Assembly (NCBI GenBank): GCA_043799675.1
Contig: JAZDNN010000027.1
Coordinates: 2,589 to 66,588, forward strand
Source: Candidatus Aenigmatarchaeota archaeon
Lineage (GTDB): Archaea; Aenigmatarchaeota; Aenigmatarchaeia; Aenigmatarchaeales; JACQIB01
Direction of reading: 5' to 3'
Length of the DNA: 64,000 nucleotides
How positions within the stretch are numbered: position 1 is the stretch's first letter; each line of letters begins with the position of its first letter. Position numbers and translations under genes: made by a program. The notes below the pieces were generated by a model. That model was not told where the DNA came from and searched no databases. It saw nothing but the letters and a program-made list of their open reading frames with translations. Shown in pieces: positions 2 to 63,453 of this stretch.

Positions 2-1288
2 AAGCTCGGCGCCGACGATGTGGTTGCCCAGTTGATGACATCGAACAACATGCAGGTCAAGTTCGCGAACTCCGCCATAGCCATAACACAGAACTGGTCG
101 AGCATGGCATTGGAGGTCTTTGTCGCTTACAAGAAACGGACGGCAGGTGTCACGCTGGAAAATCTGGACCACGCCGTCGTAAGGTCATCGATTGAAAGGT
201 TGCTAAAGATTGCCAGGAATTCCCAGCCGAACAAGGATTGGGCCGGTTTGGCTCACGGCCCGTTCAAGTATGCAAAGCCGAAGGACACATACGATGCTTC
301 CTTGGTTGCCAACGAGGACAAGGCGATTGACTGGGTGAATGCGGCCATAGCGGCCACGAAGACGCCCAAGACCGCCGGCGTTCTTTATATCACCGACGAA
401 GGGAAGACCGTCGCGACCAGCGAGGGAGTGGGCGCTCAGGACCGTTCAACGTCCGCCCAGTTCTCCATCCGCGCCTTCTTTGAACACGACGAGTCCGGAC
501 ATGCTGTCACGGCTTCTTGCAACTCGGCCGGTTTCAATCCCGAGGCGGCCGGAGTGAAGGCGGGGGAGCTTGCAAAGGCCGCAAGGAAGCCCCAGCCGGG
601 CCGGTCCGGTAAGTATGATGTTATTTTCGACCCGCTTGCGTTTGCGGGCCTGCTTGCCAGCGTCTCAACCAGCGCTTCCGCTTACAGCGTCGATGCCGGT
701 TACAGCTTCCTTGCCGACAAGATAGGCAAGAAAGTGGCCGGGCCGCATGTCACTATCTTGGATGACCCTACGGCGGCAGGCGGCCTCGGCAGCGTTGCGT
801 TTGATGATGAGGGAAGACCCACCCAACGCGTTCCAGTAATCGAGAACGGCCTGCTCAAGACGTATTTGCATAATACCCTGACCGCTAAGAAGTTCAATGC
901 CGCCTCTACTGCGAGTGCCGGTCTCATCAGCCCGCATCCGCGCAACGCGATGCTCCAGCCCGGCAATCAGTCAAGGGACGAGCTTTTCAGTCAGGTCAAG
1001 AACGGAATCTATGTGACCAACATCTGGTATACCCGTTTCCAGAATTATCGTACTGGTGATTTTTCAACCATACCCCGCGACGGCCTGTTCATAATCAGGA
1101 ATGGCGAGCTCTGGCAGCCGGTGAAGGGCCTGCGCATAACAGACAACCTGCAGCGCCTTCTCGAGAACATCGTTGCCCTTTCGAATAAACCCGAGACCAT
1201 CTTGTGGTGGGGCATGGACGACCAGATCCCTTCTACAACCCCGTACGTTTTGGTGAAGGACCTCAATCTCACGCTGCCGACGATGTGA
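2..1288 (+). CDS. TldD/PmbA-family metallopeptidase; the 5' end is probably off-window
   Basis: The reading frame is open to the window edge (track start at GTG 20). The C-terminal block NGIYVTNIWYTRFQNYRTGDFSTIPRDGLFIIRNGEL is characteristic of PmbA/TldD. Confidence 0.8.
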   Translation, partial: KLGADDVVAQLMTSNNMQVKFANSAIAITQNWSSMALEVFVAYKKRTAGVTLENLDHAVVRSSIERLLKIARNSQPNKDWAGLAHGPFKYAKPKDTYDASLVANEDKAIDWVNAAIAATKTPKTAGVLYITDEGKTVATSEGVGAQDRSTSAQFSIRAFFEHDESGHAVTASCNSAGFNPEAAGVKAGELAKAARKPQPGRSGKYDVIFDPLAFAGLLASVSTSASAYSVDAGYSFLADKIGKKVAGPHVTILDDPTAAGGLGSVAFDDEGRPTQRVPVIENGLLKTYLHNTLTAKKFNAASTASAGLISPHPRNAMLQPGNQSRDELFSQVKNGIYVTNIWYTRFQNYRTGDFSTIPRDGLFIIRNGELWQPVKGLRITDNLQRLLENIVALSNKPETILWWGMDDQIPSTTPYVLVKDLNLTLPTM

Positions 1289-1292
1289 TGCC

Positions 1293-2045
1293 ATGGACAT
1301 CCTGATGTTGGTCGCGACATTTTTCATCGGTGTTGCGTCTCTTTTTCTTGGTAGTGTGGCGGGAGGCGGCGGCGGTCTGCTCTCGCTACCGTTCTTGATT
1401 TTCATGGGCCTGCCTCCGCAGATTGCAATCGGAACCAATCGTTTCGGTACTTTAGGCCATTTATCGACGTCTTACAAGTTCTACAAGGAAAAGAAAATCA
1501 TTTTCAAGCACGCTCTGCCGTTGGCGGCCGTTGGCATAGTAGGTGCATTTCTGGGTGCCCAACTGCTTCTGCAAATAAATGAAGCTTTGCTGTCAAAACT
1601 GGTTGGGGGTTTGATCCTCCTCATGGTACCGACTCTTTTCCTCGGCCTTGGAAAGGGCAGAGGACTTGAACGGAAGAATGTACCGGAAAAGAGGAGGCTG
1701 GCGGGTTATGCAGGTTATTTCTTTGTCGCGATTTATGACGGTTTCTTTGGTGCGGCCGCCGGTTTGATAGCGGTTTATACGTTGGTGCTTTCGCTTGGCT
1801 ACACATTCATAGAAGCCAACGCCCTCGATAAGTTTGCTTTTCTGTTCGCTCTCATACCGAGCCTCGGGTTGTTCATGCTTAGCGGTATTGTCAATTATGA
1901 GGTCGGTCTGGTGTTGCTTGCGGGCATGCTGGTCGGCGGTTATCTCGGCGCGCATGTTGCAATCAAGAAGGGCAACAAGTTCGTCAAACTCATGTTCAGT
2001 GTGGTTGTGATTGCCTCAGCGCTGAAGTTGCTGTTCTTCAGCTGA
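1293..2045 (+). CDS. TauE/SafE (TSUP, DUF81) family membrane permease
   Basis: The 250-aa product is polytopic and hydrophobic. It has the GSVAGGGGGLLSLPFL N-terminal motif and an internal repeat typical of TSUP transporters. The gene starts 4 nt after the upstream stop. Confidence 0.8.
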   Translation: MDILMLVATFFIGVASLFLGSVAGGGGGLLSLPFLIFMGLPPQIAIGTNRFGTLGHLSTSYKFYKEKKIIFKHALPLAAVGIVGAFLGAQLLLQINEALLSKLVGGLILLMVPTLFLGLGKGRGLERKNVPEKRRLAGYAGYFFVAIYDGFFGAAAGLIAVYTLVLSLGYTFIEANALDKFAFLFALIPSLGLFMLSGIVNYEVGLVLLAGMLVGGYLGAHVAIKKGNKFVKLMFSVVVIASALKLLFFS

Positions 2046-2083: not shown

Positions 2084-2782
2084 ATGGTCGGCTGGAAGAA
2101 CGCGGGAAAGCGGCGGGTGAGTACCGGGGCGTATGTCGAGGATGCCGTCAGGGCACTTCTCGGCGTCGAGAAGAAATCGCTGACGCACCAGTCCAGGAAA
2201 CGGCCCGACATCTATACCGGCTCCATCGTCGGTGAGATAAAGGCAATTGAAAAGAAGGAGTCGCGCGTTACGCTGACGCTGGAACAGGTGAGACGGTATT
2301 GTGATATTGCGAGGGGCCTGAACGGTTCTTCGCTCGACGGAAGACACGAGCCGGTTTCTCTGACGTATTATTTTGCCGTGTACGACGGCAGCGGTGTGAC
2401 GCCGTTGGTTACCGACGTGTATGTCCTCGGTGAGAGGAACCTGATGCGGCTGAACAGGCAGAGGAAGGTCTACGGCAATTATTACATCAAGGACCGCGTC
2501 CTGATGCGGACTAAGGCGGCGACCGATCCGAACCAGACGGTCTTTTCGGACGGCCGGATAGAATTGCCGGGACAGGAGGAACGCGATGCCATACGGAAGA
2601 ACGCCTATGAACACAATAAGAAGGGCCTTTGCATCCGCTTTGCTGCCAGGCATCTTAAGAGGCTCTGCCGCAACGACGTGCAGCTGAAGGAGGTCATGTT
2701 CCATTACGACAACGAGTCTTTCAAGTCTTCCAGTGCTTCAGGCAAAGAGAGCGGGTTCTTCTCGTCCTTGATCTTCTCGTAA
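2084..2782 (+). CDS. hypothetical protein with a PD-(D/E)xK nuclease-like core
   Basis: The composition is balanced. RPDIYTGSIVGEIKA resembles the D...ExK core. The last ~26 codons overlap the 3' end of the convergent gene at 2704..3987, so the exact extent is uncertain. Confidence 0.5.
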   Translation: MVGWKNAGKRRVSTGAYVEDAVRALLGVEKKSLTHQSRKRPDIYTGSIVGEIKAIEKKESRVTLTLEQVRRYCDIARGLNGSSLDGRHEPVSLTYYFAVYDGSGVTPLVTDVYVLGERNLMRLNRQRKVYGNYYIKDRVLMRTKAATDPNQTVFSDGRIELPGQEERDAIRKNAYEHNKKGLCIRFAARHLKRLCRNDVQLKEVMFHYDNESFKSSSASGKESGFFSSLIFS

Positions 2783-3987
2783 GTGCTTTCCTTCAGACAA
2801 TCAGTCAGTTTGATTCCGAGCTTTGCACATGCCTGTTTCAGCGCAATGTAGCTCTCCGAGCTTGGCTTGAAGTAACAACAGATGTGTTTGTAGTTACTTC
2901 CGTGTGCCTGCAGGAAATTCTCGATCCTTGCCTGGGTGACCTCGGTGTACTTCTTCTTTATCTCGGGCGTTTCTTCCCATTCCGGCCAATCATAGCGGTT
3001 GAACGGGTAGAAGTTCACGAATTCATACGGTATGACGCCCGGAGAGCTGATGGCACATATTTGAAGTTTTTCCATTATCGGAAGCTTGTCCAGCACGCTG
3101 AAAATCGCTTTGTGCAGCTGAGAGCAAAAGTACGGTTTCCTGAACGAGCACGGAATGAACAGCAGCATGTCCTTCGATTTGTCCTTCTTCCAGAATCCGT
3201 TGATGTATTCCTGCCAGATCTCGTAGTACGGGTGCAGGAGCTCCTTCTCAGTTGCCCCCTTTATCGGTAATTGCTTGTCAATCGGCCATTTGGGTGTGAA
3301 CGAGAACTCATCGAAGTACTTCTCAACCTTCCTGTCCGTGAATTCCGCAGTCCATTCGTTGAATTCCTTCTCGGTCAGCATCTTCCATTTTCTTTCCGCC
3401 CACAGGTCGAAGGCTTTGCTTGCCCCGTGCGGGAACCAGTTCATCATGCAGATGCTGTCCGCATGCTCCATTGCGGTTTTCATGGTCCTGCGCAGGCTCT
3501 CGCGGTCGGTGTAGGGTGCATTGACCATCACATATGCTCTCATCTGGAAGCCGTTCTTGTGTAAAAAATCTGAAGCTTTGACAAAGTCTGCAGCGGTCGT
3601 TCCTTTCTGCAGTTTCTTGAGCATCTCATCGTCGGCCACTTCGAGCCCGTAACCTATCGACACTTTCACTCTGTCGCTTTTCATATCGTCGACGAATTCC
3701 TTGGTGAAGTATTCCCCGCGGCTTTCAACCACCAGTTCCTTCACACCGGCTGCCTCGCATTTCCTGACCACGTAGCTCCTGAACGCCCTCGGGACCTGTC
3801 TCTCATCGAGGAAGCTGCCGGAGTTGAATATCTTCAGTCTGTCGAACTTCTCGGTCAGGAAAATCTCGTCCAGCATCCGCTTGAGCTCGTGGATGCTCTT
3901 GACCCTGCTTTCCTTAGCCCCCCATCCGCAGAAGATGCACTTCCCCCAGCCGCATTTTCCCGAGTTAAGGTAGATTACCTTGTCCAT
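2704..3987 (-). CDS. arcS: radical-SAM (RaSEA-like) domain fused to a DUF5591/ArcS catalytic domain; putative archaeosine synthase fusion
   Basis: The product is 427 aa. The N-terminus has the Cys cluster C12-x4-C17-x2-C20 (GKCGWGKCIFCGWG) and a TIM-barrel-like radical SAM body. The C-terminal half carries P279-C-SFR-KPY-FC-S-QL-H292, an exact match to the ArcS PC-X3-KPY-X2-S-X2-H motif. The gene is divergent from arcTGT. Confidence 0.75.
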   Translation of the reverse strand: MDKVIYLNSGKCGWGKCIFCGWGAKESRVKSIHELKRMLDEIFLTEKFDRLKIFNSGSFLDERQVPRAFRSYVVRKCEAAGVKELVVESRGEYFTKEFVDDMKSDRVKVSIGYGLEVADDEMLKKLQKGTTAADFVKASDFLHKNGFQMRAYVMVNAPYTDRESLRRTMKTAMEHADSICMMNWFPHGASKAFDLWAERKWKMLTEKEFNEWTAEFTDRKVEKYFDEFSFTPKWPIDKQLPIKGATEKELLHPYYEIWQEYINGFWKKDKSKDMLLFIPCSFRKPYFCSQLHKAIFSVLDKLPIMEKLQICAISSPGVIPYEFVNFYPFNRYDWPEWEETPEIKKKYTEVTQARIENFLQAHGSNYKHICCYFKPSSESYIALKQACAKLGIKLTDCLKESTYEKIKDEKNPLSLPEALEDLKDSLS

Positions 3988-4257: not shown

Positions 4258-5970
4258 ATGTTCGAACTCCTTGACCGTGATGCCGCAGCCAGGCTCGGCA
4301 AGTGGACCGTCGGGAAGCATACCATAAGCACGCCGAACATCGCGATAGTGGTGAATCCGAACAAGATGGTGGTCTCTCCCGCAGAGCTGAAGAAGGATTT
4401 CAAAGCCGATTTGATAATCACCAACGCTTACATCATTTCGCGCTCTGCTCAGAAGGAACGGTTCGAGCAGGAAGGTCTGCACAAGGTGCTTGCATGGGAC
4501 GGGCCGATTTACACCGACAGCGGCACTTTCCAGATGTTCAGCCAGAACATCACCCCGGAGTTCGGCCCGGAAGGCACCCTGAAGTTCCAGAAGGCCATAC
4601 GCAGCGACATCATTACTCCATTGGACGTTTTCACCACCCCGAAGGACGAGCGAGGACAGGCAAAGAAGAACCTGACTGAGACAATCAAGCGCATCAAGCA
4701 GGCCAGAGGCATGATTACTGAAAATGCTTTGGTCGGCCCGATTCAGGGCGGCAGATTCCTGGATATGAGGATTGCCGCCTGCAAGCAGGTTGCCAAGCTC
4801 CAGCCCGACGTGTTTGCGATCGGGGGTATTGTCCCGTTCATGGAAAGTTACAGGTTCTCCGAGCTTGTCGACATCCTGTTGACCTGCAAGGGAAATCTGC
4901 CCGCTAACACCCCGATTCACGCCTTCGGGGCGGGCCATCCGATGGTTTTTGGGTTGCTTGCGGCCTTCGGTGCCGATGTTTTCGACAGTGCGATGTACGG
5001 CCTGGCTGCTGAGAGAGGCGCTTATCTGACCGTCAGCGGCACGCTTCAGTTGGATGAGCTTGCCGAATTGCCGTGTACCTGCCCGGAGTGTGTGAACGCA
5101 AGCATAAAGGAACTCAAATCGCAACCCGTTGAAAACCGTACGAAGTTCCTGACCAGGCATAATCTCTACGTCACCATGGCCGAAATGCGCGAGGTCAGGA
5201 CTGCAATCAGGCAGGGCTGGCTCTGGGAGCTGGTTCAGCAGCGGGCAAGGGCCCATCCCGCCCTTCTTCTGGCATTCGCAAGCGGCCTGAAGAAGCATGC
5301 AAAGCTCTTGCAGAAGCTCGACCCCGTGAGCAAGCCTTCCGCTTTCCTCTGGTCCGGCGAGGAGAGCTGGTCGCGGCCCGAAATCTTGAGGGCGCAGGAA
5401 TGGGTGCGTCGTGTCCGGGTCAAGCGTTACTTCAATCTGGAGCCGTTCGGGAAAGTGCCTGTCGGCCTGAAGTCCTGCTACCCGTTCGGCCAGTCCGTGC
5501 TGCCGAACAAGCCGCATAAGGTGAAGGCTTCTGCATCCGAAAGAGCTTTGCAGACCATCGATTATCAGTTCGGGAAGGGCGCGAGCAAGACATTCAGGAA
5601 GGTTGATATTGAAAGTTCCAGAAAGACCGGCCGCTTGAGGCGGCTCTGGACTGCCGATAAGCAGCTTCTAGGCACTTTCAGGCCCTCCGACGGCTTCTTC
5701 CTGCCTACTTTGGATGGGGCAAGGCTGCTTGGCAGGGCCATCAAGAAGGTCAAAATCAAGGATGCCGATGTAGCCGAGCTGGTTTCAGAAGGGAAGGCGG
5801 TGTTCGCCAAGTTCGCCGTGCCTTCGGCCGGGATATTGCCGAGCGAGGAAGTGGCTGTAGTCCATAACGGAAAGCTGCTGGGCGTGGGCAGGGCATTCCT
5901 GAACAGCGACGAGATGAAGCAGATGAAGCGCGGGGTCGCGGTTGAAGTTCGCACACGCCGTGAGAGTTAG
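4258..5970 (+). CDS. tgtA: archaeosine tRNA-guanine transglycosylase (ArcTGT) with a C-terminal PUA domain
   Basis: The product is 570 aa starting from ATG 4258 (MFELLDRDAAARLG...). It has the TGT TIM-barrel blocks (LIITNAY, PIQGG, FAIGG), the zinc motif CTCPEC and a PUA-like C-terminus. The track ORF start at 3889 overlaps the divergent gene and was not used. Confidence 0.9.
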   Translation: MFELLDRDAAARLGKWTVGKHTISTPNIAIVVNPNKMVVSPAELKKDFKADLIITNAYIISRSAQKERFEQEGLHKVLAWDGPIYTDSGTFQMFSQNITPEFGPEGTLKFQKAIRSDIITPLDVFTTPKDERGQAKKNLTETIKRIKQARGMITENALVGPIQGGRFLDMRIAACKQVAKLQPDVFAIGGIVPFMESYRFSELVDILLTCKGNLPANTPIHAFGAGHPMVFGLLAAFGADVFDSAMYGLAAERGAYLTVSGTLQLDELAELPCTCPECVNASIKELKSQPVENRTKFLTRHNLYVTMAEMREVRTAIRQGWLWELVQQRARAHPALLLAFASGLKKHAKLLQKLDPVSKPSAFLWSGEESWSRPEILRAQEWVRRVRVKRYFNLEPFGKVPVGLKSCYPFGQSVLPNKPHKVKASASERALQTIDYQFGKGASKTFRKVDIESSRKTGRLRRLWTADKQLLGTFRPSDGFFLPTLDGARLLGRAIKKVKIKDADVAELVSEGKAVFAKFAVPSAGILPSEEVAVVHNGKLLGVGRAFLNSDEMKQMKRGVAVEVRTRRES

Positions 5971-16681: not shown

Positions 16682-16840
16682 GCCGCGTTTTCCCGTTTCC
16701 AATTCAGCGCATACTATTTGTTGCATTAGCTAGCTTTCCAGAGATATTTTTCCAAAGATAGGACGTAAGAGCTAGCACATAACGTATAGTTTTCAGTAAA
16801 CAGATGGTCCGGGAACCCAAACTAAAATGTGAGAGTTCGA

Positions 16841-16886
16841 GAAAATCCTAAGGGATTTTCGAGACGCGTGAACAGCGAGTTCACGC
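16841..16886. repeat. bipartite hairpin element, copy A
   Basis: The element reads GAAAATCC-taag-GGATTTTC, GAGAC, GCGTGAAC-agcga-GTTCACGC. The core TCGAGACGCGTGAAC...GAGTTCACGC is identical to the copy at 30516..30557. Confidence 0.6.
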
Positions 16887-16977
16887 AGTCCGTGAGGGAC
16901 GAATAGTAAATAGCCGTTTTCAATCATTTGAAAGACTTACTTAATATTTCGGATATACAAGTTACGGATGGATTGGA

Positions 16978-17895
16978 ATGAAGCGTTTAATGATATTATC
17001 GGTTTTGGTTCTAGTTGTTGCTATTTCGCTGATATTTGTTAAATTGTCTCATACCGCAGAGTCGCCACCGCAAAGAACGGAATCCGTATCATCGTCGGTG
17101 CCTGTTTCAGTGCCCAATACAAGCGCATGTGCAATCACCTCACCCCCGTCGAGCATGGAAGGCGCCAATACCCATCCGGAAGTATACGGCACTGGCGCGG
17201 ACCCAAACATCATCACGCTCGGCCCGAAGACGGGCGCCCACCCGGATTGGCCTACCTACCCGAACAAGCTTGGCATGGAGTTCGAACTTCAACGCGGAAC
17301 GCCCGTGCTTGCGCCCATCGATATGGTACTGGTGGGCGTCAACAACAGGGGCGCCGCCTATCGTATCCAGAACGGAGAAAAAGTGAGTCCGTTCGATGAT
17401 TTGGGATTATACTTTGAGTCTGCCAGCCCCGATTGGCCAAACATGATAATATTTACCTATCACCTAATGAGTTCGCCGCTGGTGCTCAAGGACAATCAAA
17501 GCGATGTTCAAGAATGGGGGACAGTTCTCCGTGCCCAGGGTCACCTGTTCTATGATGTCAGTGATTACATGGCACCGGAAAATGCAGTTTCATGCGATGC
17601 CATGATCGGGCGCTTGGTAAGACGCGGCGAACTGATAGGGTTCGCCGGTAGTGTCGGCAATCACTCCATGGCCCCTTTTTGTTTCAAGGTATCATCTGCG
17701 TCGGAAAATCCGACCATTCAAAACGGGAACCGCTACCTTCATTGGGTGCAACCAAGCTCGTTCTTTTACTGGAAATGTTACAGTTCTGATGCGGATTTTC
17801 CCGGTGGCGTGCTCGCTTATCCGTTCGAATGTGATGGGTATCAACTTCCTGCTGAACAGCGTGATGTGAATTTCAAATACACATCAACGAAATGA
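16978..17895 (+). CDS. secreted protein with distant, degenerate M23/LytM-like similarity
   Basis: A signal anchor is followed by a S/P-rich linker. GMEFELQRGTPVLAPIDMVLVGV and GELIGFAGSVGNHSMAPFCFKV resemble M23 blocks, but the HxxxD and HxH metal ligands are not intact. Confidence 0.35.
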   Translation: MKRLMILSVLVLVVAISLIFVKLSHTAESPPQRTESVSSSVPVSVPNTSACAITSPPSSMEGANTHPEVYGTGADPNIITLGPKTGAHPDWPTYPNKLGMEFELQRGTPVLAPIDMVLVGVNNRGAAYRIQNGEKVSPFDDLGLYFESASPDWPNMIIFTYHLMSSPLVLKDNQSDVQEWGTVLRAQGHLFYDVSDYMAPENAVSCDAMIGRLVRRGELIGFAGSVGNHSMAPFCFKVSSASENPTIQNGNRYLHWVQPSSFFYWKCYSSDADFPGGVLAYPFECDGYQLPAEQRDVNFKYTSTK

Positions 17896-18010
17896 TATCG
17901 AATGGAAGCCAGCTGAGAGGGAAACGGGTCGAAAGCTCCCGCTAAGGTCACTCAAAATCGTAAGAATTAAACGAATTTGTCTGACTAGTATGATCGCTAG
18001 ATGTATCTAC

Positions 18011-18764: not shown

Positions 18765-19301
18765 ATGCCAAAAGCAGCAATACTGATTGCGGACGGTTTC
18801 GAGGAGATCGAGGCCATAGCGGTTGCCGACATCCTGCGCCGTGCCGGCATAACGGCCGCGCTGGTCGGGATGAGCGGAAACCAGGTCATGGGCAGGACGG
18901 GCATAAGGGTGAATTCCGACGCCCGCCTGATTGACAGTGACATCTCCGGCTTCGATTGCATCGTACTGCCCGGCGGTTCACAGGCTGTCGATACCATATC
19001 AAAGCATTCGACCGCTCTGAGAATCATCGAGGATTTCGCGAGGAAGGGGAAGCTTGTGGCAGCCATCTGCGCCGCACCGAAGATACTGGCGCAGCAGGGT
19101 CTGTTGAAGGACAAGCGTGCTACAGCCTATCCCGGTCTGGAGAAGATACTGGACAGGCCGCGCTCGGACAGGGTCGTGGTCGACGGCAACATAATAACCA
19201 GCCAGGGACCCGGGACGAGCATCGATTTCGCCCTCGCGATAGTCGAGCAGCTCGCAGGAAAGGCCACCGCAGCCAGGGTAAGACAAGAGATAGTCGCTTG
19301 A
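18765..19301 (+). CDS. DJ-1/PfpI family protein
   Basis: ILIADGFEEIEA, the nucleophile-elbow AAICAAP and DGNIITSQGPGTSIDFAL are typical of DJ-1/ThiJ/YajL. Confidence 0.85.
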   Translation: MPKAAILIADGFEEIEAIAVADILRRAGITAALVGMSGNQVMGRTGIRVNSDARLIDSDISGFDCIVLPGGSQAVDTISKHSTALRIIEDFARKGKLVAAICAAPKILAQQGLLKDKRATAYPGLEKILDRPRSDRVVVDGNIITSQGPGTSIDFALAIVEQLAGKATAARVRQEIVA

Positions 19302-19342
19302 GAAGCGAAAACGATTATATCTAATAGTGTTAACTGTAACGC

Positions 19343-20002
19343 GTGAAGCTGGAGCATTCTGAGGAACTTGCCGAGCTGGTCGGAATCATGTTAGGCGATG
19401 GAAATATCTACGAGAGGAGGATACCACCAAAGATTTCTGCTTATCAGGTCCGCATTTGCGGTAGCCTCAAGGATGAAAAGGTATACATGCTGCATTATGT
19501 TGCACCATTAGTCGAAAGGGTTTTTGGGATCAGACCTTCAATCAAGTTTTTCAGAAACAACGGTCTGTACGTATGTCTGCATAGAAAGGAAGTTGTCGAG
19601 GCGCTAAAGGATGTCGGTCTTAAATCTGGCAGCAAGATTGAAAACAGATTAGGTATACCTATTTGGATAAAAGAAAATCCGGATTATCTCCGCGTCTGTT
19701 TACGCGGTTTAATCGATACTGATGGGTCGGTTTATCGACTTTCCAATCGCGATGCAAAATACGGTTATATGAGAATAAGTTTCAAAAACGGAAATCCGCA
19801 GTTGCTTGCGGATGTAAAAGAGGCCCTTGCAAAGTTGGGTATCAGTGCAAGTAAAGTGATTCATTATAATATTTTCATTACTGCGCAAAGCCATGTGCGG
19901 AAATATCAAACCGAAATAGGATTTAAGAACCCTAAACACTTACACCGATTAGCCCCGTCGTCTAGTGGCCAAGAGAGCGCGAAAAACGTTCTGGTAAGAT
20001 AG
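19343..20002 (+). CDS. free-standing double-motif LAGLIDADG homing endonuclease (copy 1)
   Basis: The two LAGLIDADG motifs are LVGIMLGDGNI and LRGLIDTDGSV. The gene has a GTG start and is a homologue of 50649..51299. Its last 17 codons are read from the tRNA-Gln 5' exon and intron 1. The gene is AT-rich relative to its flanks. Confidence 0.8.
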   Translation: MKLEHSEELAELVGIMLGDGNIYERRIPPKISAYQVRICGSLKDEKVYMLHYVAPLVERVFGIRPSIKFFRNNGLYVCLHRKEVVEALKDVGLKSGSKIENRLGIPIWIKENPDYLRVCLRGLIDTDGSVYRLSNRDAKYGYMRISFKNGNPQLLADVKEALAKLGISASKVIHYNIFITAQSHVRKYQTEIGFKNPKHLHRLAPSSSGQESAKNVLVR

Positions 20003-20094
20003 CAGGCTCTGAACCTGTGGACGGAGGTTCGAAACGAACTGCTGTTCGTTTGACTGTGAACGGCAGTTCACTGGAAATCCTCCCGGGGCTACCA
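19951..20094 (+). tRNA. tRNA-Gln(CUG) with two putative non-canonical introns (D-arm ~19975..19999; T-loop ~20034..20077); CCA encoded
   Basis: The acceptor is AGCCCCG/CGGGGCT (A1-U72) and the D-arm is GTCT-AGTGGCCA-AGAT. The anticodon arm is GCAGG-CTCTGAA-CCTGT and the T-arm is GGAGG-TTCGAAT-CCTCC. The fold only forms after removing 25 nt and 44 nt, giving a 75-nt mature tRNA. The exact junctions are ambiguous because AAGA and GAAA repeat at the boundaries. Confidence 0.65.
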
Positions 20095-20484
20095 TCTGTT
20101 TCCCTTCTTTGCCTTCTCGATGTTTGCCAGGATGTAGACCGTGTAATCGTCCTTGTAGCATGGCGGGCAACCCCCGTTGATTGCAATAAGCCTGCTCGGC
20201 ACCTCTTCCTTTGCGTTCAATGCGTTGACCTGGCCGTCATACTTCCAGACCTTGCCGCCCTGCTCCCAGAACATGGGTCTTACAAGGTCTACCGCTATCC
20301 GACTGTCTGGTATGCAGCCCCAGAACCCGGCCGCCACCCTTTGCATCTTCTTCCACCAGTCGTCATACAGGATTTCCTTGCCGCCGACAAGTTCTGCTCC
20401 TCTCTTCCAGCCGTATTCCAGCCATTCCTTAGCTTTCGCTGTTTCGGTTTGTTCCAAGAAACCCTCAAGAGCTATGGGCTGCAT
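20089..20484 (-). CDS. hypothetical protein (131 aa) with a C-terminal CPPC motif
   Basis: This is a clean Trp-rich ORF with GGCPPCYKD near the C-terminus. I recognise no family. The stop overlaps the tRNA-Gln 3' end by 6 nt (convergent). Confidence 0.5.
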   Translation of the reverse strand: MQPIALEGFLEQTETAKAKEWLEYGWKRGAELVGGKEILYDDWWKKMQRVAAGFWGCIPDSRIAVDLVRPMFWEQGGKVWKYDGQVNALNAKEEVPSRLIAINGGCPPCYKDDYTVYILANIEKAKKGNRW

Positions 20485-39547: not shown

Positions 39548-39669
39548 GCCCCTGTAGCTCAGCATGGATAGAGCGCCTGACTTCTATCTCTCGATAGAAG
39601 AGACGAGGCTTAGGCCGATGAAAGGAAGAAATCAGGAGGTCGAGGGTCCGAATCCCTTCAGGGGCGCCA
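39548..39669 (+). tRNA. tRNA-Arg(UCU) with a 44-nt intron at the canonical 37/38 position; CCA encoded
   Basis: The acceptor is GCCCCTG/CAGGGGC and the D-arm is GCTC-AGCATGGATA-GAGC. The anticodon arm is CCTGA-CTTCTA[intron]A-TCAGG and the T-arm is GAGGG-TCCGAAT-CCCTT. The discriminator is G. Confidence 0.85.
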
Positions 39670-50648: not shown

Positions 50649-51299
50649 ATGAAGTTAATGGTTTTTCCATCCAAATCAGAGAAACTTGCTGAATTCTTAG
50701 GAATAATGGCTGGTGATGGCTCCATGGCAGTTTATCGACGAGGTACGAAGACAGATTATCGTGTTATAGTATCCGGCGATAGTAGAGATGATGCCGTATA
50801 CCTGACCAAACATGTACATTCGCTCGTCAAAGAGCTGTTTGGTTTGGAACCGACTTACTGGTATCAGAAATCGCAACATACGATGCACCTTGTCATCAGA
50901 TCCAAGCTTCTCTTGGAATATCTTTCAAGTATTGGGGTTAATGTTGGCAGAAAAATTAATATGTCGATACCAGAGTGGATTCTGGAGAAACGTATTTTCA
51001 TTTTAGCATATCTGAAAGGTCTTTTCGATACAGATGGCGGCATCTACCTCAGAAACGGAACATATCCGGTGGTTTCATTAGCGCAGAAAAGTAGGAAGCT
51101 TGTAGAATCGGTCGAGAAACAATTAAAGGCAAACGGGTTCACCGTTTGGGTAGATTACGATATTGTCAGGAAAGACCCAAGAGGTTTCGTTTCTACAGGA
51201 CACCGATTGTATATATCCGGAAAGAAGAATCTCGGATTGTGGAATAAACACATTGGTTTCAGCAACCCGAAGCATGCAAGCAAGCTGATGGTGGGGTAG
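50649..51299 (+). CDS. free-standing double-motif LAGLIDADG homing endonuclease (copy 2)
   Basis: The two LAGLIDADG motifs are FLGIMAGDGSM and LKGLFDTDGGI. It is a homologue of 19343..20002, and both end in IGF(K/S)NPKH. Its last four codons (ATG GTG GGG TAG) are the complement of the tRNA-Phe 3' end. The gene is AT-rich. Confidence 0.8.
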   Translation: MKLMVFPSKSEKLAEFLGIMAGDGSMAVYRRGTKTDYRVIVSGDSRDDAVYLTKHVHSLVKELFGLEPTYWYQKSQHTMHLVIRSKLLLEYLSSIGVNVGRKINMSIPEWILEKRIFILAYLKGLFDTDGGIYLRNGTYPVVSLAQKSRKLVESVEKQLKANGFTVWVDYDIVRKDPRGFVSTGHRLYISGKKNLGLWNKHIGFSNPKHASKLMVG

Positions 51300-51377
51300 G
51301 GGCGATTTGAACGCCCGACATAGCGGTTCCTGCTTTTTGCTTCAGCCGCTCGCTCTCCCGTGCTGAGCTACTACCCC
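51289..51377 (-). tRNA. tRNA-Phe(GAA) with a 12-nt intron at 37/38; CCA encoded
   Basis: The reverse complement reads GGGGTAG-TA-GCTC-AGCACGGGA-GAGC-G-AGCGG-CTGAAG[CAAAAAGCAGGA]A-CCGCT-ATGTC-GGGCG-TTCAAAT-CGCCC-CTACCCC-A-CCA. Confidence 0.8.
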
Positions 51378-58731: not shown

Positions 58732-61700
58732 GTGATTCCCTTGGATGCCATAAAGACCAGAACGAGCGAGAACAGCGAACAGCATCTTGAGGCCAGTGCG
58801 GCCAGGCTCGCCGAGACTTCCCCCCAGTTGAAGAAGCCGCTCGTGACCGAGAACCAACTGAAGGTGATAAAGGACAAGTATTTGCGCGACGACCCGTCGG
58901 TGGATATCTGGCTGTGGAGGGTTGCCGAAAACATCGCCCTGTCCGAACTGCTCTATGATTCTCTTGTCCCGCGCGAGGACATCCTTGCCGGAGTGAGCCA
59001 CAGGCTCGAAAAGGTGGAGGCAGGCGATGCGCGGGGGAGCGAGCGCCTGCTGCTTCATGCGGGCATCGACGATCACAACACGCGGCTGGCCAACCACCGC
59101 CGCTTCATTGCGAACCTGTACAAACTGGCAAGGGAACATCCGCACGCGAAGGCCGTGGTGAGGGAGCAGGCCCTGCATTTCTACGAGCTGATGGCCGCAT
59201 GGGACTTTTTGCCGAACTCCCCGTGCCTGATGAATGCGGGGAGGGCCTTGCAGCAGCTGAGCGCCTGTTATGTCCTGCCGATCGAGGACAGCATCGAGGG
59301 CTGGGGCGATACCGTGAAGAACACCATGATAATTCATCAATGTCTGGTTCCGGAGACGTTGGTGATGACCGACGCCGGGCTGGCCGAGCTTGGCACGGTC
59401 ACGGATAATCATCATATCCTGACCCATCTAGGTCCGAGACAAGTGTCCGCCACCTATCGCAACGGCCGCCAGCCAATTTTCAAAGTAACCACCGAGCACG
59501 GCTACGGACTTACCGGCACCGCCGAGCACAAGCTGCTTGTGATTAATGAAACGGGGCTTCCGGCATGGCGACCCATCAGCGAGCTTCGGCCCAGTGATTG
59601 GTTGATGCTGTCTACCGGCGGCTGGCACGGCGGTGTCAGAGAATTGCCGCCGTTCGAATGGAAGCCGAAGGCCGGCAGGAATCGCACGAGTTTCAAGGCC
59701 CGGGACATCAGGCTGCCCACTGAGATGAGCGAAGAGTTTGCAGAACTCATCGGCCTGTATATCGGCGACGGCAGCAACCATCGCGACGGCATCCGTTTTT
59801 CAATCGGTTTCGATGATGCCGATTTGGTCGCGCGCATAACCGAGCTGAGCAAGAAGATGTTCGGAGTGGACCCCGTGGTCTCGAAGAAAAGGGATGGCAG
59901 GTGCTACGAGGTCGCCTTGCTCAGCGTCAAGCTCAAGGCATGGATGGCTGCTATCGGGGTGACCAAGAGTTCGGCCAATGATGCCAGCATACCTGGGATT
60001 GTACGGCGGGCCGATGAGCCGGTTATTTGCGCCTTCCTGCGCGGACTGTTCAGCGCCGATGGCTGCGTGCGGCAGAAGGGATATATAACCTTGGCGACAG
60101 TCTCGCACAAGTTGCTGGACCAGGCGCAGGTTGCCCTGCTACATCTGGGCATCCCTACGCGTAATCTCCGGCTCAGCACAGGGGTGTGGCAACTCAATGT
60201 CTGCAGCCGGCGGGGATTCGAGCTGTTCAGGGAGAAGATAGGTTTCATGGCTGCGCGCAAGCAGGGGCGCTTGCTTGCGGTCGACTCCAGCAAGATTTTC
60301 ACGCGCCGGGAATACCTGCCGCGACAGATTGAGCGGCTGCGCGAGTGGTATGACGGCCTACCCAAGCATGTCAAGGCAGATATTCGGACCAATCATTTGC
60401 TGGAGTTCCAGTATCAGGGCCGCGAGCTGACCGTACAGAAGTTGCAGCTCCTAGCTGATACCTATCCTGCTGAGGCGGTAGACTGGTTCGGGGAACTCCT
60501 GGACGGCCGATTCTTCTATTCCCGAGTCCGTGCTGTGGAGCCAGCCGGAAAGGCGGACGTTATTGACCTAACGGTGCCAGGTATTCATGCCTATCTGGCC
60601 AACGGTTTCATTTCCCACAACAGCGGAGGCGGCACCGGTTTTTCCGCCGGGCGCGTGAGGCATCGGGGCGACACCGTGAAGAGCACCGCCGGGATAGCGA
60701 GCGGCGCCTTGAGTCCGTTCATCCTCATCAATCAGGCGACCGGCCTGGTCAAGCAGGGAGGGACCAGAAGGGGCGCGAACATGGGAATCCTTCCCTGGTG
60801 GCATCCTGACATCGTCGAGTTCATAGATTCCAAGCAAGAGGAGGGCAAGCTCGAGAACTTCAACATCTCGGTCGCCCTTGACGCGCGCTTCATGACGGCC
60901 GCAGAAAACGACGAGGAGGTCGACCTTGTCAGCCCGCGGACGAAGCAACCGGTAAGAAAAATCAGGGCGAAGGACCTGTTCGACAAGATAATCAACAATG
61001 CGTGGAGGACCGGCGACCCGGGCGTGATTTTCATGGACAGGATAAACGACAGCCTGAGCAACCCGACGCCCGCCTTGGGCGAGATAGAGAGCACAAATCC
61101 TTGCGTGGCCGGCGACACGCTGGTGTACACCGGTTCCGGTCTCATGACCGCAGGGGAGCTTGCCGCGAATCCGATTCCGATGTCCCTCGGCATTACGGTC
61201 GATGGCAGGATGAGCCCTGATGCCATGCTGCCGGCTAGCAACGTGTTTTGGACAGGCAGGAAGCCGGTCTACCGTCTGGTAACACAGGAAGGTTATTCGA
61301 TAAGGCTCACCGGAAACCACCGCGTGATGACCGACCGTGGATGGGTTGAGGCCAGGGACCTTATGCCGGGCGACAGGATTCATATTTTATCCAGAAAGGG
61401 CGGATTCGGCACGAAGGGCGACCTCGATACCGGTCGGATAGCTGGACACGAATCGATGGAAACAATATCAGATGACATCATTGCAGCTTCAGAGGATTTC
61501 CAGCGTGGATTCTTGCAAGTGTTATTCACGGATTGCGGACAAATCGATGAAAATGGCATCCATCTCAGAAAGACAAACGTTATACATGAACGCATACAAC
61601 AGATGCTTCTGAATTTTGGTATATATTCAATAGTAAACAAGGATGAGCTCCATATACGGACGGAACAGACTAAAGATTTCCATCGTGAAATCGGATTCTT

Positions 61701-63453
61701 GAAGGATTCCCTGATTGATCGGCTGGAAGTTTGCCTCGCCAACGGAGCGCATGTCACATCACGGGAGCATTTCACGGTCTCATTCATTGAATTGAAATCC
61801 GAAGGCGAGGAAGACGTGTTTGACCTGAGCGAGCCGCGGACCCACAGCTTCGTGGCCAACGGCTTCGTGGTCCATAACTGCGGTGAACAGCCGTTATTGC
61901 CGTTCGAGAGCTGCAACCTCGGAAGCATCAACCTGCGCAACTTCACCTCGGGAAATGATTTCGACTGGCCGCGGCTGCGCTCCGCGATGCGCACCGCCGT
62001 CCGTTTCATGGACAACTGCATCGATGTGAACAACCTTCCGCTCGAGGAGATCGAGAGCATAACCAAGGGCAACCGCAGGCTGGGCATCGGCGTGATGGGC
62101 TGGGCCGAATCGCTTTCAGCTATGGGTATACCGTACGACTCCGAGGCCGCCCTGTCGAAGGCCGAGCAGACCGCGAAGTTCCTGGAAGACGTAGCTCTTG
62201 CAGCCAGCGAGGAGCTCGCCGCTGAGCGCGGTGTTTTCCCGAACTTTGTCGGCTCGATGTATGATCCTTCAAGCCCCTATCGCAAGGATTGGGCGGTCGG
62301 CAGGCCAAGAAATTGTGCCCGTACCACCATCGCCCCGACCGGGACCATAGCCATCACCGCCGGATTGCAGGGCGGCGGGATAGAGCCGTTCTTCGCGCTC
62401 GTTTATACGCGCTACAACGCAAAGGCGCTGGACGCCCTCAAGAAGGGCGAGAAGCCCGAGGAAGGCGACGTGTTCTATGAGGTCAACCCCGTGTTCAGGA
62501 AGGTCGCCGATTCAAATGCGTTCTGGGGGATGTCCGAGGCCGATTTGTGGAAAAGGATAGTGGAGAACCACGGCTCCGTCCGCGGGATCGAAGAGATACC
62601 GGAAGCAATCCAGCGTGCGTTCGCGACCGCACATGATATCGGCGTCCCGTGGCACGTGCGCATGCAGGCGGCCTGGCAGAAGTTCACCGACAACGCCGTG
62701 AGCAAGACCATCAACATGCCGAACAGCGCGACGCCCGAGGAAGTGCGCGCCACCTACCTGCTTGCTTGGAAGACCGGCTGCAAGGGGATTACCGTTTACA
62801 GGGACGGCTGCAAGTCGCAGCAGGTCCTCAATCTGTCCGCAAAGAAGCTCGAACCGAAAATAGAAATGATGGAGCCGCAGGTAAGGCCCCGCCCCCGCCC
62901 GAAGATGATGGAAGGGAAGACCCAGGAGGTAAGGACCGGCTGCGGCGACATGTACATAACTGTCAATCGCGATGAGAAGGGTCCGTTCGAACTGTTTGCG
63001 GCCATAGGCAAGAGCGGGGGCTGTATCTCAAGTTATTCCGAAGCCGTGGCAAGGCTGGTGAGCCTTGCTCTTCGCAGCGGCGTCGACCCGAAGCAGGTGG
63101 TCAAGCAGCTCAAAGGCATACGGTGCAGCCGGCCGGTGTTCGATACCGGAGGGGTCACCTACAGCTGCGCTGATTGCATCGCCAAGGCGTTCGAGAAGGT
63201 GATAGCCGGCGACACCAGCCAGCAGGCCCATCTTGCCGTGTTTGCCGAGGAGGCGATACCGCAGCATAAGGAGGAGAACGGAAAGAACATGACTCTGGAC
63301 GGGCGGGCAATAACCCCAGTGCAGGAACCGAACCAGATGGAGCAGCTCATCAAGGCCGGCGCGAGGCCTGAGTGCCCCGAGTGCGGCGGCCCCGTCAATT
63401 TCGTTGAAGGCTGTGTCACTTGCTCCGCCTGCGGTTACAGCGCCTGCGGGTAA
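58732..63453 (+). CDS. nrdJ: class II (adenosylcobalamin-dependent) ribonucleotide reductase NrdJ, interrupted by two inteins
   Basis: The N-terminal block is TENQLKVIKDKYL. The GGGTGFS and NPCGEQPL active-site blocks are each split by an intein. The C-terminal zinc ribbon is CPECGG...CVTCSACG. The extein is ~887 aa. The start (GTG 58732) is uncertain. Confidence 0.9.
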   Translation: MIPLDAIKTRTSENSEQHLEASAARLAETSPQLKKPLVTENQLKVIKDKYLRDDPSVDIWLWRVAENIALSELLYDSLVPREDILAGVSHRLEKVEAGDARGSERLLLHAGIDDHNTRLANHRRFIANLYKLAREHPHAKAVVREQALHFYELMAAWDFLPNSPCLMNAGRALQQLSACYVLPIEDSIEGWGDTVKNTMIIHQCLVPETLVMTDAGLAELGTVTDNHHILTHLGPRQVSATYRNGRQPIFKVTTEHGYGLTGTAEHKLLVINETGLPAWRPISELRPSDWLMLSTGGWHGGVRELPPFEWKPKAGRNRTSFKARDIRLPTEMSEEFAELIGLYIGDGSNHRDGIRFSIGFDDADLVARITELSKKMFGVDPVVSKKRDGRCYEVALLSVKLKAWMAAIGVTKSSANDASIPGIVRRADEPVICAFLRGLFSADGCVRQKGYITLATVSHKLLDQAQVALLHLGIPTRNLRLSTGVWQLNVCSRRGFELFREKIGFMAARKQGRLLAVDSSKIFTRREYLPRQIERLREWYDGLPKHVKADIRTNHLLEFQYQGRELTVQKLQLLADTYPAEAVDWFGELLDGRFFYSRVRAVEPAGKADVIDLTVPGIHAYLANGFISHNSGGGTGFSAGRVRHRGDTVKSTAGIASGALSPFILINQATGLVKQGGTRRGANMGILPWWHPDIVEFIDSKQEEGKLENFNISVALDARFMTAAENDEEVDLVSPRTKQPVRKIRAKDLFDKIINNAWRTGDPGVIFMDRINDSLSNPTPALGEIESTNPCVAGDTLVYTGSGLMTAGELAANPIPMSLGITVDGRMSPDAMLPASNVFWTGRKPVYRLVTQEGYSIRLTGNHRVMTDRGWVEARDLMPGDRIHILSRKGGFGTKGDLDTGRIAGHESMETISDDIIAASEDFQRGFLQVLFTDCGQIDENGIHLRKTNVIHERIQQMLLNFGIYSIVNKDELHIRTEQTKDFHREIGFLKDSLIDRLEVCLANGAHVTSREHFTVSFIELKSEGEEDVFDLSEPRTHSFVANGFVVHNCGEQPLLPFESCNLGSINLRNFTSGNDFDWPRLRSAMRTAVRFMDNCIDVNNLPLEEIESITKGNRRLGIGVMGWAESLSAMGIPYDSEAALSKAEQTAKFLEDVALAASEELAAERGVFPNFVGSMYDPSSPYRKDWAVGRPRNCARTTIAPTGTIAITAGLQGGGIEPFFALVYTRYNAKALDALKKGEKPEEGDVFYEVNPVFRKVADSNAFWGMSEADLWKRIVENHGSVRGIEEIPEAIQRAFATAHDIGVPWHVRMQAAWQKFTDNAVSKTINMPNSATPEEVRATYLLAWKTGCKGITVYRDGCKSQQVLNLSAKKLEPKIEMMEPQVRPRPRPKMMEGKTQEVRTGCGDMYITVNRDEKGPFELFAAIGKSGGCISSYSEAVARLVSLALRSGVDPKQVVKQLKGIRCSRPVFDTGGVTYSCADCIAKAFEKVIAGDTSQQAHLAVFAEEAIPQHKEENGKNMTLDGRAITPVQEPNQMEQLIKAGARPECPECGGPVNFVEGCVTCSACGYSACG
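59341..60621 (+). mobile_element. intein 1 (427 aa) with a LAGLIDADG homing-endonuclease domain
   Basis: It starts with Cys (CLVPETLV) immediately after ...TMIIHQ and ends ...NGFISHN, followed by the +1 Ser of SGGGTG. The internal LAGLIDADG motifs are LIGLYIGDGSN and LRGLFSADGCV. Confidence 0.85.
61102..61878 (+). mobile_element. intein 2 (259 aa) with a reduced or degenerate endonuclease region
   Basis: It starts CVAGDTLV after ...IESTNP and ends ...NGFVVHN, followed by the +1 Cys of CGEQPL. I see only one LAGLIDADG-like remnant (FLQVLFTDCGQI). Confidence 0.8.

Follow-up and report, generated by a model that had tools for sequence, protein, structure and literature searches.

Why should a gene for a putative homing endonuclease end exactly where a tRNA gene begins? 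This arrangement is found in a 64 000-nt stretch of contig JAZDNN010000027.1 from a Candidatus Aenigmatarchaeota archaeon, hereafter called the window, in which a LAGLIDADG open reading frame (ORF 1; 19343..20002, + strand) reads directly into the gene for tRNA-Gln. An initial annotation of the window had suggested an endonuclease family that homes to, or persists at, tRNA gene borders. We observed the same junction in most of the related species counted, together with empty sites and a sporadic presence of the gene. From these findings we consider it probable that ORF 1 belongs to a large lineage of homing endonucleases specific for tRNA borders, which occurs in DPANN archaea and reaches into bacteria of the Candidate Phyla Radiation (CPR).

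The endonuclease gene and its junction with tRNA-Gln

ORF 1 is intact and encodes a two-motif protein of 219 aa of the I-DmoI type. Only the GTG can serve as start codon, as the same frame contains a TAA two codons before it. The protein matches the Pfam family LAGLIDADG_3 (PF14528) with 40 bits (cutoff 22.5), and its motifs read LVGIMLGDG (containing D19) and LRGLIDTDG (containing D127). In an alignment of 20 homologues the residues G18, D19 and G20 as well as D125, T126, D127 and G128 are invariant, and both catalytic aspartates are kept. Searching the PDB with a profile of the family returned I-DmoI, I-Tsp061I and PI-PfuI as well as endonuclease domains of inteins. With 20 homologues as input, AlphaFold2 gave a model with a predicted local distance difference test value (pLDDT) of 91.2 and a predicted template modelling score (pTM) of 0.87, in keeping with the tandem alpha-beta-beta-alpha-beta-beta-alpha fold of these enzymes. 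Its best Foldseek match was I-DmoI (E 1.7e-9, template modelling score 0.73 normalised to the target), and the TliVMA intein, PI-PfuI and I-Tsp061I were further top matches; WhiA was a distant match at rank 47, and the bI3 maturase is also among the fold matches. Low model confidence is confined to residues 205–215 (pLDDT <50, disordered), which lie within the tRNA-encoded tail described below. Compared with the allele on contig L161, the ratio of nonsynonymous to synonymous substitution rates (dN/dS, Nei–Gojobori) is 0.10, indicating purifying selection. The invariant aspartates, the confident model, this ratio and the recurrence of the junction in other species all speak against a decayed protein in a juxtaposition unique to this genome.

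No intron or intein encloses ORF 1: it starts 41 nt after the stop codon of a DJ-1/PfpI gene, and its core (residues 1–203; 19343..19950, + strand, 608 bp), which is the whole inserted segment, ends at tRNA position −1. Every feature testable here places the protein in the LAGLIDADG family, and the first description of a free-standing, double-motif ORF with a GTG start holds. The gene would encode a monomeric two-domain LAGLIDADG homing endonuclease, for which, as for its family, cleavage of a specific site of ~20 bp with 4-nt 3′ overhangs is predicted. About half of the family is ~300 aa long and has an HTH-like (helix–turn–helix-like) N-terminal extension of ~90 aa with a conserved NWG..KGG..S.G motif (columns 1–95 of alignment A1, e.g. 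P0002, P0020, P0038 and P0113); this extension is missing from ORF 1.

The adjoining pre-tRNA-Gln(CUG) gene (19951..20094, + strand) consists of three exons (19951-19973, 19998-20033 and 20077-20094), with the anticodon at 20009-20011 and an encoded CCA. Its two introns, whose boundaries are uncertain by ~2 nt, lie in the D-loop (19974..19997, 24 nt) and in the T-loop (20034..20076, 43 nt), and neither of them holds an ORF. Removal of both yields a 77-nt tRNA-Gln(CUG) with a perfect cloverleaf and encoded CCA, and ARAGORN calls the spliced sequence tRNA-Gln(ctg). Because of the two non-canonical introns the gene was detected neither by ARAGORN in default mode nor by Rfam at the gathering threshold.

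With the cloverleaf established, the claim that the conserved core of ORF 1 ends exactly at the start of the same-strand tRNA-Gln can be stated to the base: tRNA position +1, A19951, is the third base of the Leu203 codon, and the core ends one base earlier. The read-through tail (19951..20002, + strand) adds 16 codons (APSSSGQESAKNVLVR) and the TAG at 20000..20002, and it is drawn from exon 1, the whole of intron 1 and a few bases at the start of exon 2. The initial annotation had counted 17 codons and had assigned both tail and stop to exon 1 and intron 1; by our boundaries, uncertain by ~2 nt, the stop falls at the beginning of exon 2. Apart from these two details its description holds. The tRNA-Gln 5′ end (tAGCCCCGTAGTCTAG) makes a TAG available in all three frames. 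In the window, TCG stands in place of TAG at tRNA positions 8–10 in the frame of ORF 1, and for this reason translation continues 16 codons further.

Linkage to tRNA ends across the family

A protein search with ORF 1 returned ~600 relatives, chiefly from DPANN archaea, and at least 444 relatives were confirmed when GTDB species, each represented by one genome, were scanned. Junctions were counted at the best 80 loci, each from a different species. Rather than occupying unrelated, non-tRNA positions, the ORF reads directly into the 5′ end of a same-strand tRNA-Gln or tRNA-Glu at 66 of the 80 loci according to ARAGORN and at 67 according to a pattern search. The partner 5′ end is AGCCC.., ARAGORN types every intron-less partner as Gln (CTG/TTG), and five partners are tRNA-Glu(CTC). 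Intron-bearing partners are mislabelled by ARAGORN -i (as Thr, Leu, Ser and others); the typing used the AGCCC... 5′ end together with the partners that have no intron.

The junction can be read in the proteins themselves. Many relatives end in ..AP, ..SPVV or ..APSSSGQ, and the tails vary with the reading frame (AP*, SPVV*, APSSSGQ..): they are the tRNA-Gln 5′ end translated in two of the three frames, while the third frame stops at T(-1)A1G2 and leaves no tail. Such tRNA-derived tails are present in at least 85 of the 120 best metagenomic homologues. Among the 67 loci the stop codon is the D-arm TAG at tRNA positions 13–15 in 38, the TAG at positions 8–10 in 15 and T(-1)A1G2 in 3; at the remaining loci the ORF has its own stop 1–3 nt before the tRNA (3 loci) or 24 nt upstream (1 locus), or stops deeper in the tRNA (7 loci). 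Since the tRNA 5′ end terminates all three frames, the ORFs need no stop of their own.

As a control for chance we counted, at the same loci, ORFs of at least 150 aa of other kinds, which end at a tRNA in 28 of 366 cases compared with 66 of 80 for the LAGLIDADG genes. In a broader scan of DPANN archaea and CPR/Patescibacteria a tRNA was found at the 3′ end of 50 of 77 ORFs, compared with 14 of 283 control ORFs. The partners entered at the 5′ end on the same strand were Ser (in CPR bacteria), Thr, Gln, Arg, Leu and His, and those met in antisense at the 3′ end were most commonly Phe, but also Ile, Trp, Met, Leu and Gly. In all abutting cases the ORF points into the tRNA. In CPR/Patescibacteria the ORFs read into tRNA-Ser from its 5′ side, and their tails are ..GEVPKWS or ..RRGA (loci L177, L180, L191, L196, L208, L212, L215 and L229), so that the habit of sitting at tRNA borders crosses into bacteria, which have no bulge–helix–bulge (BHB) splicing. 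At three loci (L206, L221 and L232) the C-terminal ~25 residues (..AGNRTQVQNLEGSDV..) are an antisense translation of a whole tRNA-Gly gene.

The antisense arrangement is also present in the window, at the second tRNA for which the initial annotation had already noted a homologous gene (50649..51377). This LAGLIDADG gene 2 (50649..51299, + strand, 216 aa) is 30% identical to ORF 1 (E 2e-27) and has a core that ends at ~51287; beyond this point its final codons, TAG included, run antisense to the 3′ end of a minus-strand tRNA-Phe, and the gene overlaps the CCA end of this tRNA by 11 nt. The tRNA-Phe(GAA) gene (51289..51377, − strand) has a 12-nt canonical intron and an encoded CCA (ARAGORN -i) and a TATA-like TTTTAAATAAA at about −30 to −20. 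ARAGORN called this tRNA ‘Leu’, which we rejected in view of the short variable loop; the Phe anticodon was reassigned by eye from this loop and the canonical 37/38 intron position. The same catalytic motifs are invariant in the gene 2 family, and homologues of gene 2 end in ..GREGFEPSTA, ..GFEPTT or similar, which is the antisense translation of the tRNA T-arm and acceptor stem. An intron-less tRNA-Phe(gaa) is the partner at L169, L170, L175, L205 and L211.

Several metagenome-assembled genomes (MAGs) contain multiple copies at different tRNAs. A tRNA cluster of a nanoarchaeote (L029) holds two family members (727..1761, − strand, and 2701..3597, + strand; 2436..2510 also belongs to the cluster), one entering tRNA-Thr(GGT) and the other adjoining tRNA-Glu(CTC), and the tRNA-Gln between both is unoccupied. 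Neighbour joining groups the Glu-linked genes as a single clade within the Gln-linked ones, which implies that the partner tRNA is heritable within endonuclease lineages.

These patterns bear on the idea that such genes have no target specificity, land anywhere in the genome and survive beside tRNAs because they are harmless there and difficult to delete cleanly. The wording ‘or persists at’ had left room for this, DPANN and CPR genomes are compact, and ORF 1 overlaps its tRNA and carries a TATA-like element within its last codons. However, random landing followed by filtering would be expected to leave many tRNAs per clade and variable spacing. What we observed instead is the same tRNA species, side and orientation in 66–67 of 80 species, a partner that follows the endonuclease clade (the Glu clade and the Phe-3′ family) and a junction that deviates from tRNA +1 by a few bases at most. 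We regard this explanation as unlikely.

Empty sites and the history of the locus

In composition the endonuclease gene is foreign to the window. The GC content is 41.8% for 19343..19950 and 41.7% for gene 2 (50649..51288), compared with 54.6 ± 3.6% for 608-nt segments of the sequence, so the impression that ORF 1 is AT-richer than its flanks was right; the two tRNA-border copies are the two lowest-GC stretches in the 64 kb. A third LAGLIDADG match (59464..60297) lies in a ribonucleotide-reductase-like ORF of 1573 aa (58732..63453, + strand) that is apparently interrupted by one or more inteins, one of which carries this endonuclease domain; its GC content (59%) is host-like, in contrast to both tRNA-border copies.

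The initial annotation had proposed looking for an empty site at related tRNA-Gln loci, and several were found. The closest relatives of the left neighbour, the DJ-1/PfpI gene (18765..19301, + strand), come from Aenigmatarchaeota MAGs, and four syntenic sites (L084, L081, L083 and L086) show DJ-1 followed by tRNA-Gln (in some with a small ORF between them), with an AT-rich promoter 5′ of the tRNA and without the endonuclease gene. An example of an empty tRNA-Gln site reads ...TTCTATAGTC|AGCCCCGTCGTCTAGCGGCC.... The best empty site is on a JGI contig (L420) whose DJ-1 protein shows 97% aa identity; here a 38-nt spacer follows the DJ-1 stop, and then tRNA-Gln begins. This spacer can be aligned from end to end with the 41 nt that precede the GTG both in L161 and in the window. 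Its TATA-like element, CTTAAAAG at −30 to −23 of tRNA +1, is matched by TTATATCT in the window, and A+1 of its tRNA aligns with the G of the ORF 1 GTG. From this alignment it follows that the insertion comprises 19343..19950, i.e. the ORF alone, between the tRNA promoter and tRNA +1. No flanking direct repeats were found in 19150..20250, and no inverted repeat brackets ORF 1. On another contig (L351, ~5083..5360) two tandem copies of tRNA-Gln are present, and a 56-aa C-terminal endonuclease fragment adjoining a run of Ns precedes the second; it could reflect either the decay of a former copy or a gap in the assembly, and we did not use it as evidence of decay.

The shape of the insertion is informative about two further explanations. 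Since tRNA genes are classic integration sites (PMC3399842), ORF 1 might be cargo of an integrase-type element with the tRNA gene as attachment site. But the filled and empty sites differ by the 608-bp ORF only, with no integrase and no duplicated tRNA segment, and the insertion lies by the promoter at the 5′ end instead of producing an attachment-site duplication at the 3′ end, which makes this origin extremely improbable. Alternatively the ORF might act at the RNA level, within an intron-like or leader segment that the archaeal splicing endonuclease excises at a BHB motif, in the manner of the endonuclease ORFs of archaeal rRNA introns, or as the mark of a split or permuted tRNA. The two non-canonical introns of the host tRNA imply that the splicing machinery acts on the transcript, and the closest structures, I-DmoI and I-Tsp061I, are intron-encoded. 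Yet the tRNA is complete and colinear 3′ of the ORF with no upstream exon, the empty sites hold a promoter spacer only, and there is no inverted repeat around the ORF; moreover, the gene 2 family is antisense to its tRNA, and the bacterial members in CPR do without BHB splicing. We consider an RNA-level element very improbable.

To estimate how often the site is occupied, we scanned with a 22-mer of the tRNA-Gln 5′ end (AGCCCYRTAGTSTAGYGGYCAA), which also matches 21 of the 67 endonuclease-linked tRNAs. Among the matches listed, the endonuclease gene was found at 3 of the 105 tRNA-Gln genes with the 22-mer and enough upstream sequence. This sporadic distribution is difficult to combine with a domesticated LAGLIDADG protein that serves the host in connection with the tRNA, either as an RNA maturase or, like WhiA, as a DNA-binding protein regulating the transcription of tRNA, for example, and that forms an operon with it. 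The low dN/dS and the conserved linkage to one tRNA would fit such a role, and WhiA and the bI3 maturase, both among the fold matches, provide precedents. However, close relatives live without the gene, both catalytic aspartates are invariant, the GC content is foreign, the history is unlike that of the flank and several genomes have copies at different tRNAs. For a WhiA-like regulator in particular, the C-terminal HTH is missing and the C-terminus is a disordered tail encoded by the tRNA. Domestication is in our judgement improbable.

The separate history of the gene became visible by comparison with three independent ENA contigs (L161, L247 and L248), which encode an identical DJ-1 protein. 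Over a 146-aa gene, the spacer and DJ-1 their nucleotide identity to the window is 96.8–98.7% (DJ-1 96.8%). Directly past the DJ-1 stop codon, where we place a recombination breakpoint, identity falls to 73–75% and stays there through the endonuclease gene; further to the right it is 77% for the tRNA and 81% (L161) for the right-flank gene (20089..20484, − strand, 131 aa), which is convergent with tRNA-Gln, forms part of the diverged tract and is 71% identical at the aa level to that of the empty-site contig L420. Accordingly, the synonymous divergence (dS, Nei–Gojobori) from the three contigs is 0.12 for DJ-1 and 1.6 for the endonuclease gene. The L161 tRNA differs from that of the window in the anticodon and T stems, with compensatory changes, has another D-loop intron and is missing the T-loop intron, and it is almost identical to the tRNA of the empty site in L420, intron included. 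These differences are most simply explained if close relatives each received a different endonuclease allele at this site, the L161 allele beside the resident tRNA allele and that of the window together with a foreign tRNA allele. The tRNA allele, the right-flank gene and ORF 1 diverge together, in contrast to 97% identity in the left flank. Exact-protein look-ups with the window genes and with ORF 1 in two alternative starts did not reveal where the diverged tract ends on the right, and co-conversion is for this reason only suggestive. Introns of any kind occur in ~54% of the tRNA-Gln genes linked to a homing endonuclease gene (HEG) and in 35% of HEG-less ones. We dropped the idea of the D-loop intron as a shield against self-cleavage, since D-loop introns are not reliably classifiable.

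Two of the three contigs (L247 and L248) break off inside the endonuclease gene, and strain heterogeneity could fragment the assembly here. A strain-level indel was observed further to the left: 16840..17915 (1.07 kb, with an ORF at 16978..17895 of 305 aa and an N-terminal hydrophobic stretch) is replaced by 9 nt in L247, which is otherwise 95–97% identical around this region.

An insertion between promoter and tRNA raises the question of how both genes are expressed. A TATA-like box GATTATATCT (19313..19322, + strand), centred ~25 nt 5′ of the GTG, is also conserved in L161, where it reads GGTTATATGT. It probably once served as promoter of tRNA-Gln and now drives the endonuclease mRNA; with the GTG at the former transcription start this mRNA would probably be leaderless. 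A candidate internal TATA box, TTTAAGAA (19922..19929, + strand; −29 to −22 of tRNA +1), lies in the codons of a conserved GFKN motif and is identical in the L161 allele, which is 74% identical. For tRNA-Arg (39548) and tRNA-Phe of the window, the centre of a TATA-like box is found near −26, counted from the mature 5′ end. The tRNA-Gln genes at empty sites are built in the same way, and a TATA peak at −31 to −28 was observed upstream of a sample of 102 endonuclease-less tRNA-Gln genes. Boxes near −26 suggest that these tRNAs have little or no leader. It had been proposed that RNase P cleavage at the tRNA 5′ end would remove the stop codon from the endonuclease mRNA; this is possible, but the argument holds only under two conditions, namely that both genes share a transcript and that tRNA leaders are processed in this organism. 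Given tRNAs with little or no leader and TTTAAGAA inside the ORF, the sequence suggests that an internal promoter for a leaderless tRNA-Gln is at least as likely. The tRNA-Arg gene (39548..39666, + strand) has an intron of ~46 nt and, by eye, the anticodon UCU, and ARAGORN -i calls it selenocysteine; its TATA-like CTTTATAAGT at −31 to −22 suggests a leaderless transcript, and no endonuclease gene adjoins it.

Proposed homing to tRNA borders and its known counterparts

Taken together, the best reading of these data is in our view homing to tRNA borders, to which we give good credence. The element is the 608-bp ORF only, inserted precisely at tRNA +1 on the downstream side of the promoter TATA box of tRNA-Gln; the GTG takes the old transcription start, the last conserved helix ends at tRNA −1, and the ORF has no stop codon of its own. 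In endonuclease-less alleles the enzyme would recognise the conserved tRNA 5′ end and the adjacent spacer and cut near −1/+1, and double-strand-break repair would copy the gene in, often co-converting the neighbouring tRNA allele with its introns. The tRNA would be kept functional either by co-transcription and 5′ processing or as a leaderless transcript from the TATA-like element in the last ORF codons. Gene 2 (50649..51299) would behave in the same way at the tRNA-Phe 3′ end, in convergent orientation.

Several points weigh against this view. We infer homing itself from distribution and anatomy. The homology between the filled and empty spacers rests on ~40 nt, and the 105 tRNA-Gln genes are an arbitrary sample among the matches listed, drawn from species representatives that are mostly MAGs. 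Beyond the tRNA the diverged tract continues for at least 320 nt and enters the right-flank gene; as its far end was not found, the breakpoint could belong to a larger recombination event that merely ends at the ORF. With regard to the internal promoter, HEG-linked tRNA-Gln genes show only a weak AT peak at −31 to −28 in a test for 8/8-AT windows, and the per-position AT profile 5′ of tRNA +1 shows no clear peak at the HEG-linked family loci. Finally, no close relatives were found on viral contigs, hence no vector for the spread was identified; the viral contigs contain distant domains only (at most 34% identity) within ORFs of 2–4 kb, none adjoining a tRNA, which we read as candidate intein-type copies.

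A more far-reaching idea, which we offer tentatively and think rather doubtful, is that the mobile unit is effectively the endonuclease gene plus its tRNA, so that homing drags tRNA alleles between DPANN and CPR lineages while the ORF in the promoter slot acts as an addiction-like lock. If so, homing would spread non-canonical BHB introns and drive the turnover of tRNA genes and tRNA introns, and a replacement TATA box inside the ORF would make precise deletion nearly impossible without killing an essential tRNA.

Homing endonucleases have so far been known from introns and inteins, or as free-standing genes mainly in phages and organelles. The lineage proposed here would add a widespread cellular niche, the exact borders of tRNA genes in both great radiations of ultrasmall microbes, and would solve the host-gene problem without splicing, by insertion at a conserved gene edge where promoter slot and stop codons are reused. 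Co-conversion could spread tRNA alleles and introns between lineages, and hundreds of natural meganucleases would have predictable, highly conserved targets in tRNA genes. For annotation it matters that such ORFs are often given wrong starts or odd tails, and that the adjoining intron-rich tRNAs are missed by standard tools. Searches of the full-text literature gave no account of a LAGLIDADG gene joined to a tRNA border in either DPANN or CPR; the cases reported from both groups are LAGLIDADG genes in rRNA introns.

In fold, ORF 1 resembles enzymes of the I-DmoI, I-Tsp061I and I-PorI type, which are likewise archaeal, share the monomeric two-domain fold and the catalytic motifs and have targets in conserved genes for stable RNAs. 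Their ORFs, however, lie inside rRNA introns spliced at BHB motifs, whereas ORF 1 lies outside the RNA gene and splicing is unneeded. Free-standing LAGLIDADG and GIY-YIG ORFs are also found in fungal and algal organelles, some of them continuing in frame from the 3′ end of a protein gene. They too place an endonuclease gene at a gene border and share sequence with the host gene, but they are joined to protein-coding genes, whose displaced end is usually duplicated, and we know of no systematic tie of these ORFs to tRNA ends. The retroelements Ty1, Ty3 and Dictyostelium TRE are similar in using the surroundings of tRNA genes as a conserved, harmless landing site for a selfish element (PMC5911963); they differ in being eukaryotic and in relying on an integrase tethered to RNA polymerase III factors, and they are not known to be fused to the tRNA.

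The nearest functional analogue is SegB of phage T4, a free-standing GIY-YIG homing endonuclease encoded in the phage tRNA gene cluster, whose 27-bp site includes 11 bp of the T-psi-C stem-loop and whose homing carries neighbouring tRNA genes along (PMC2330249). By this analogy both genes lie outside introns and inteins, and the site of ORF 1 would likewise be built on a conserved motif of a tRNA gene. The differences are that SegB has the GIY-YIG fold, belongs to a phage and lies among tRNA genes, while ORF 1 is a cellular LAGLIDADG gene that is fused base to base to one tRNA end, borrows the stop codons of the tRNA and takes its promoter slot.

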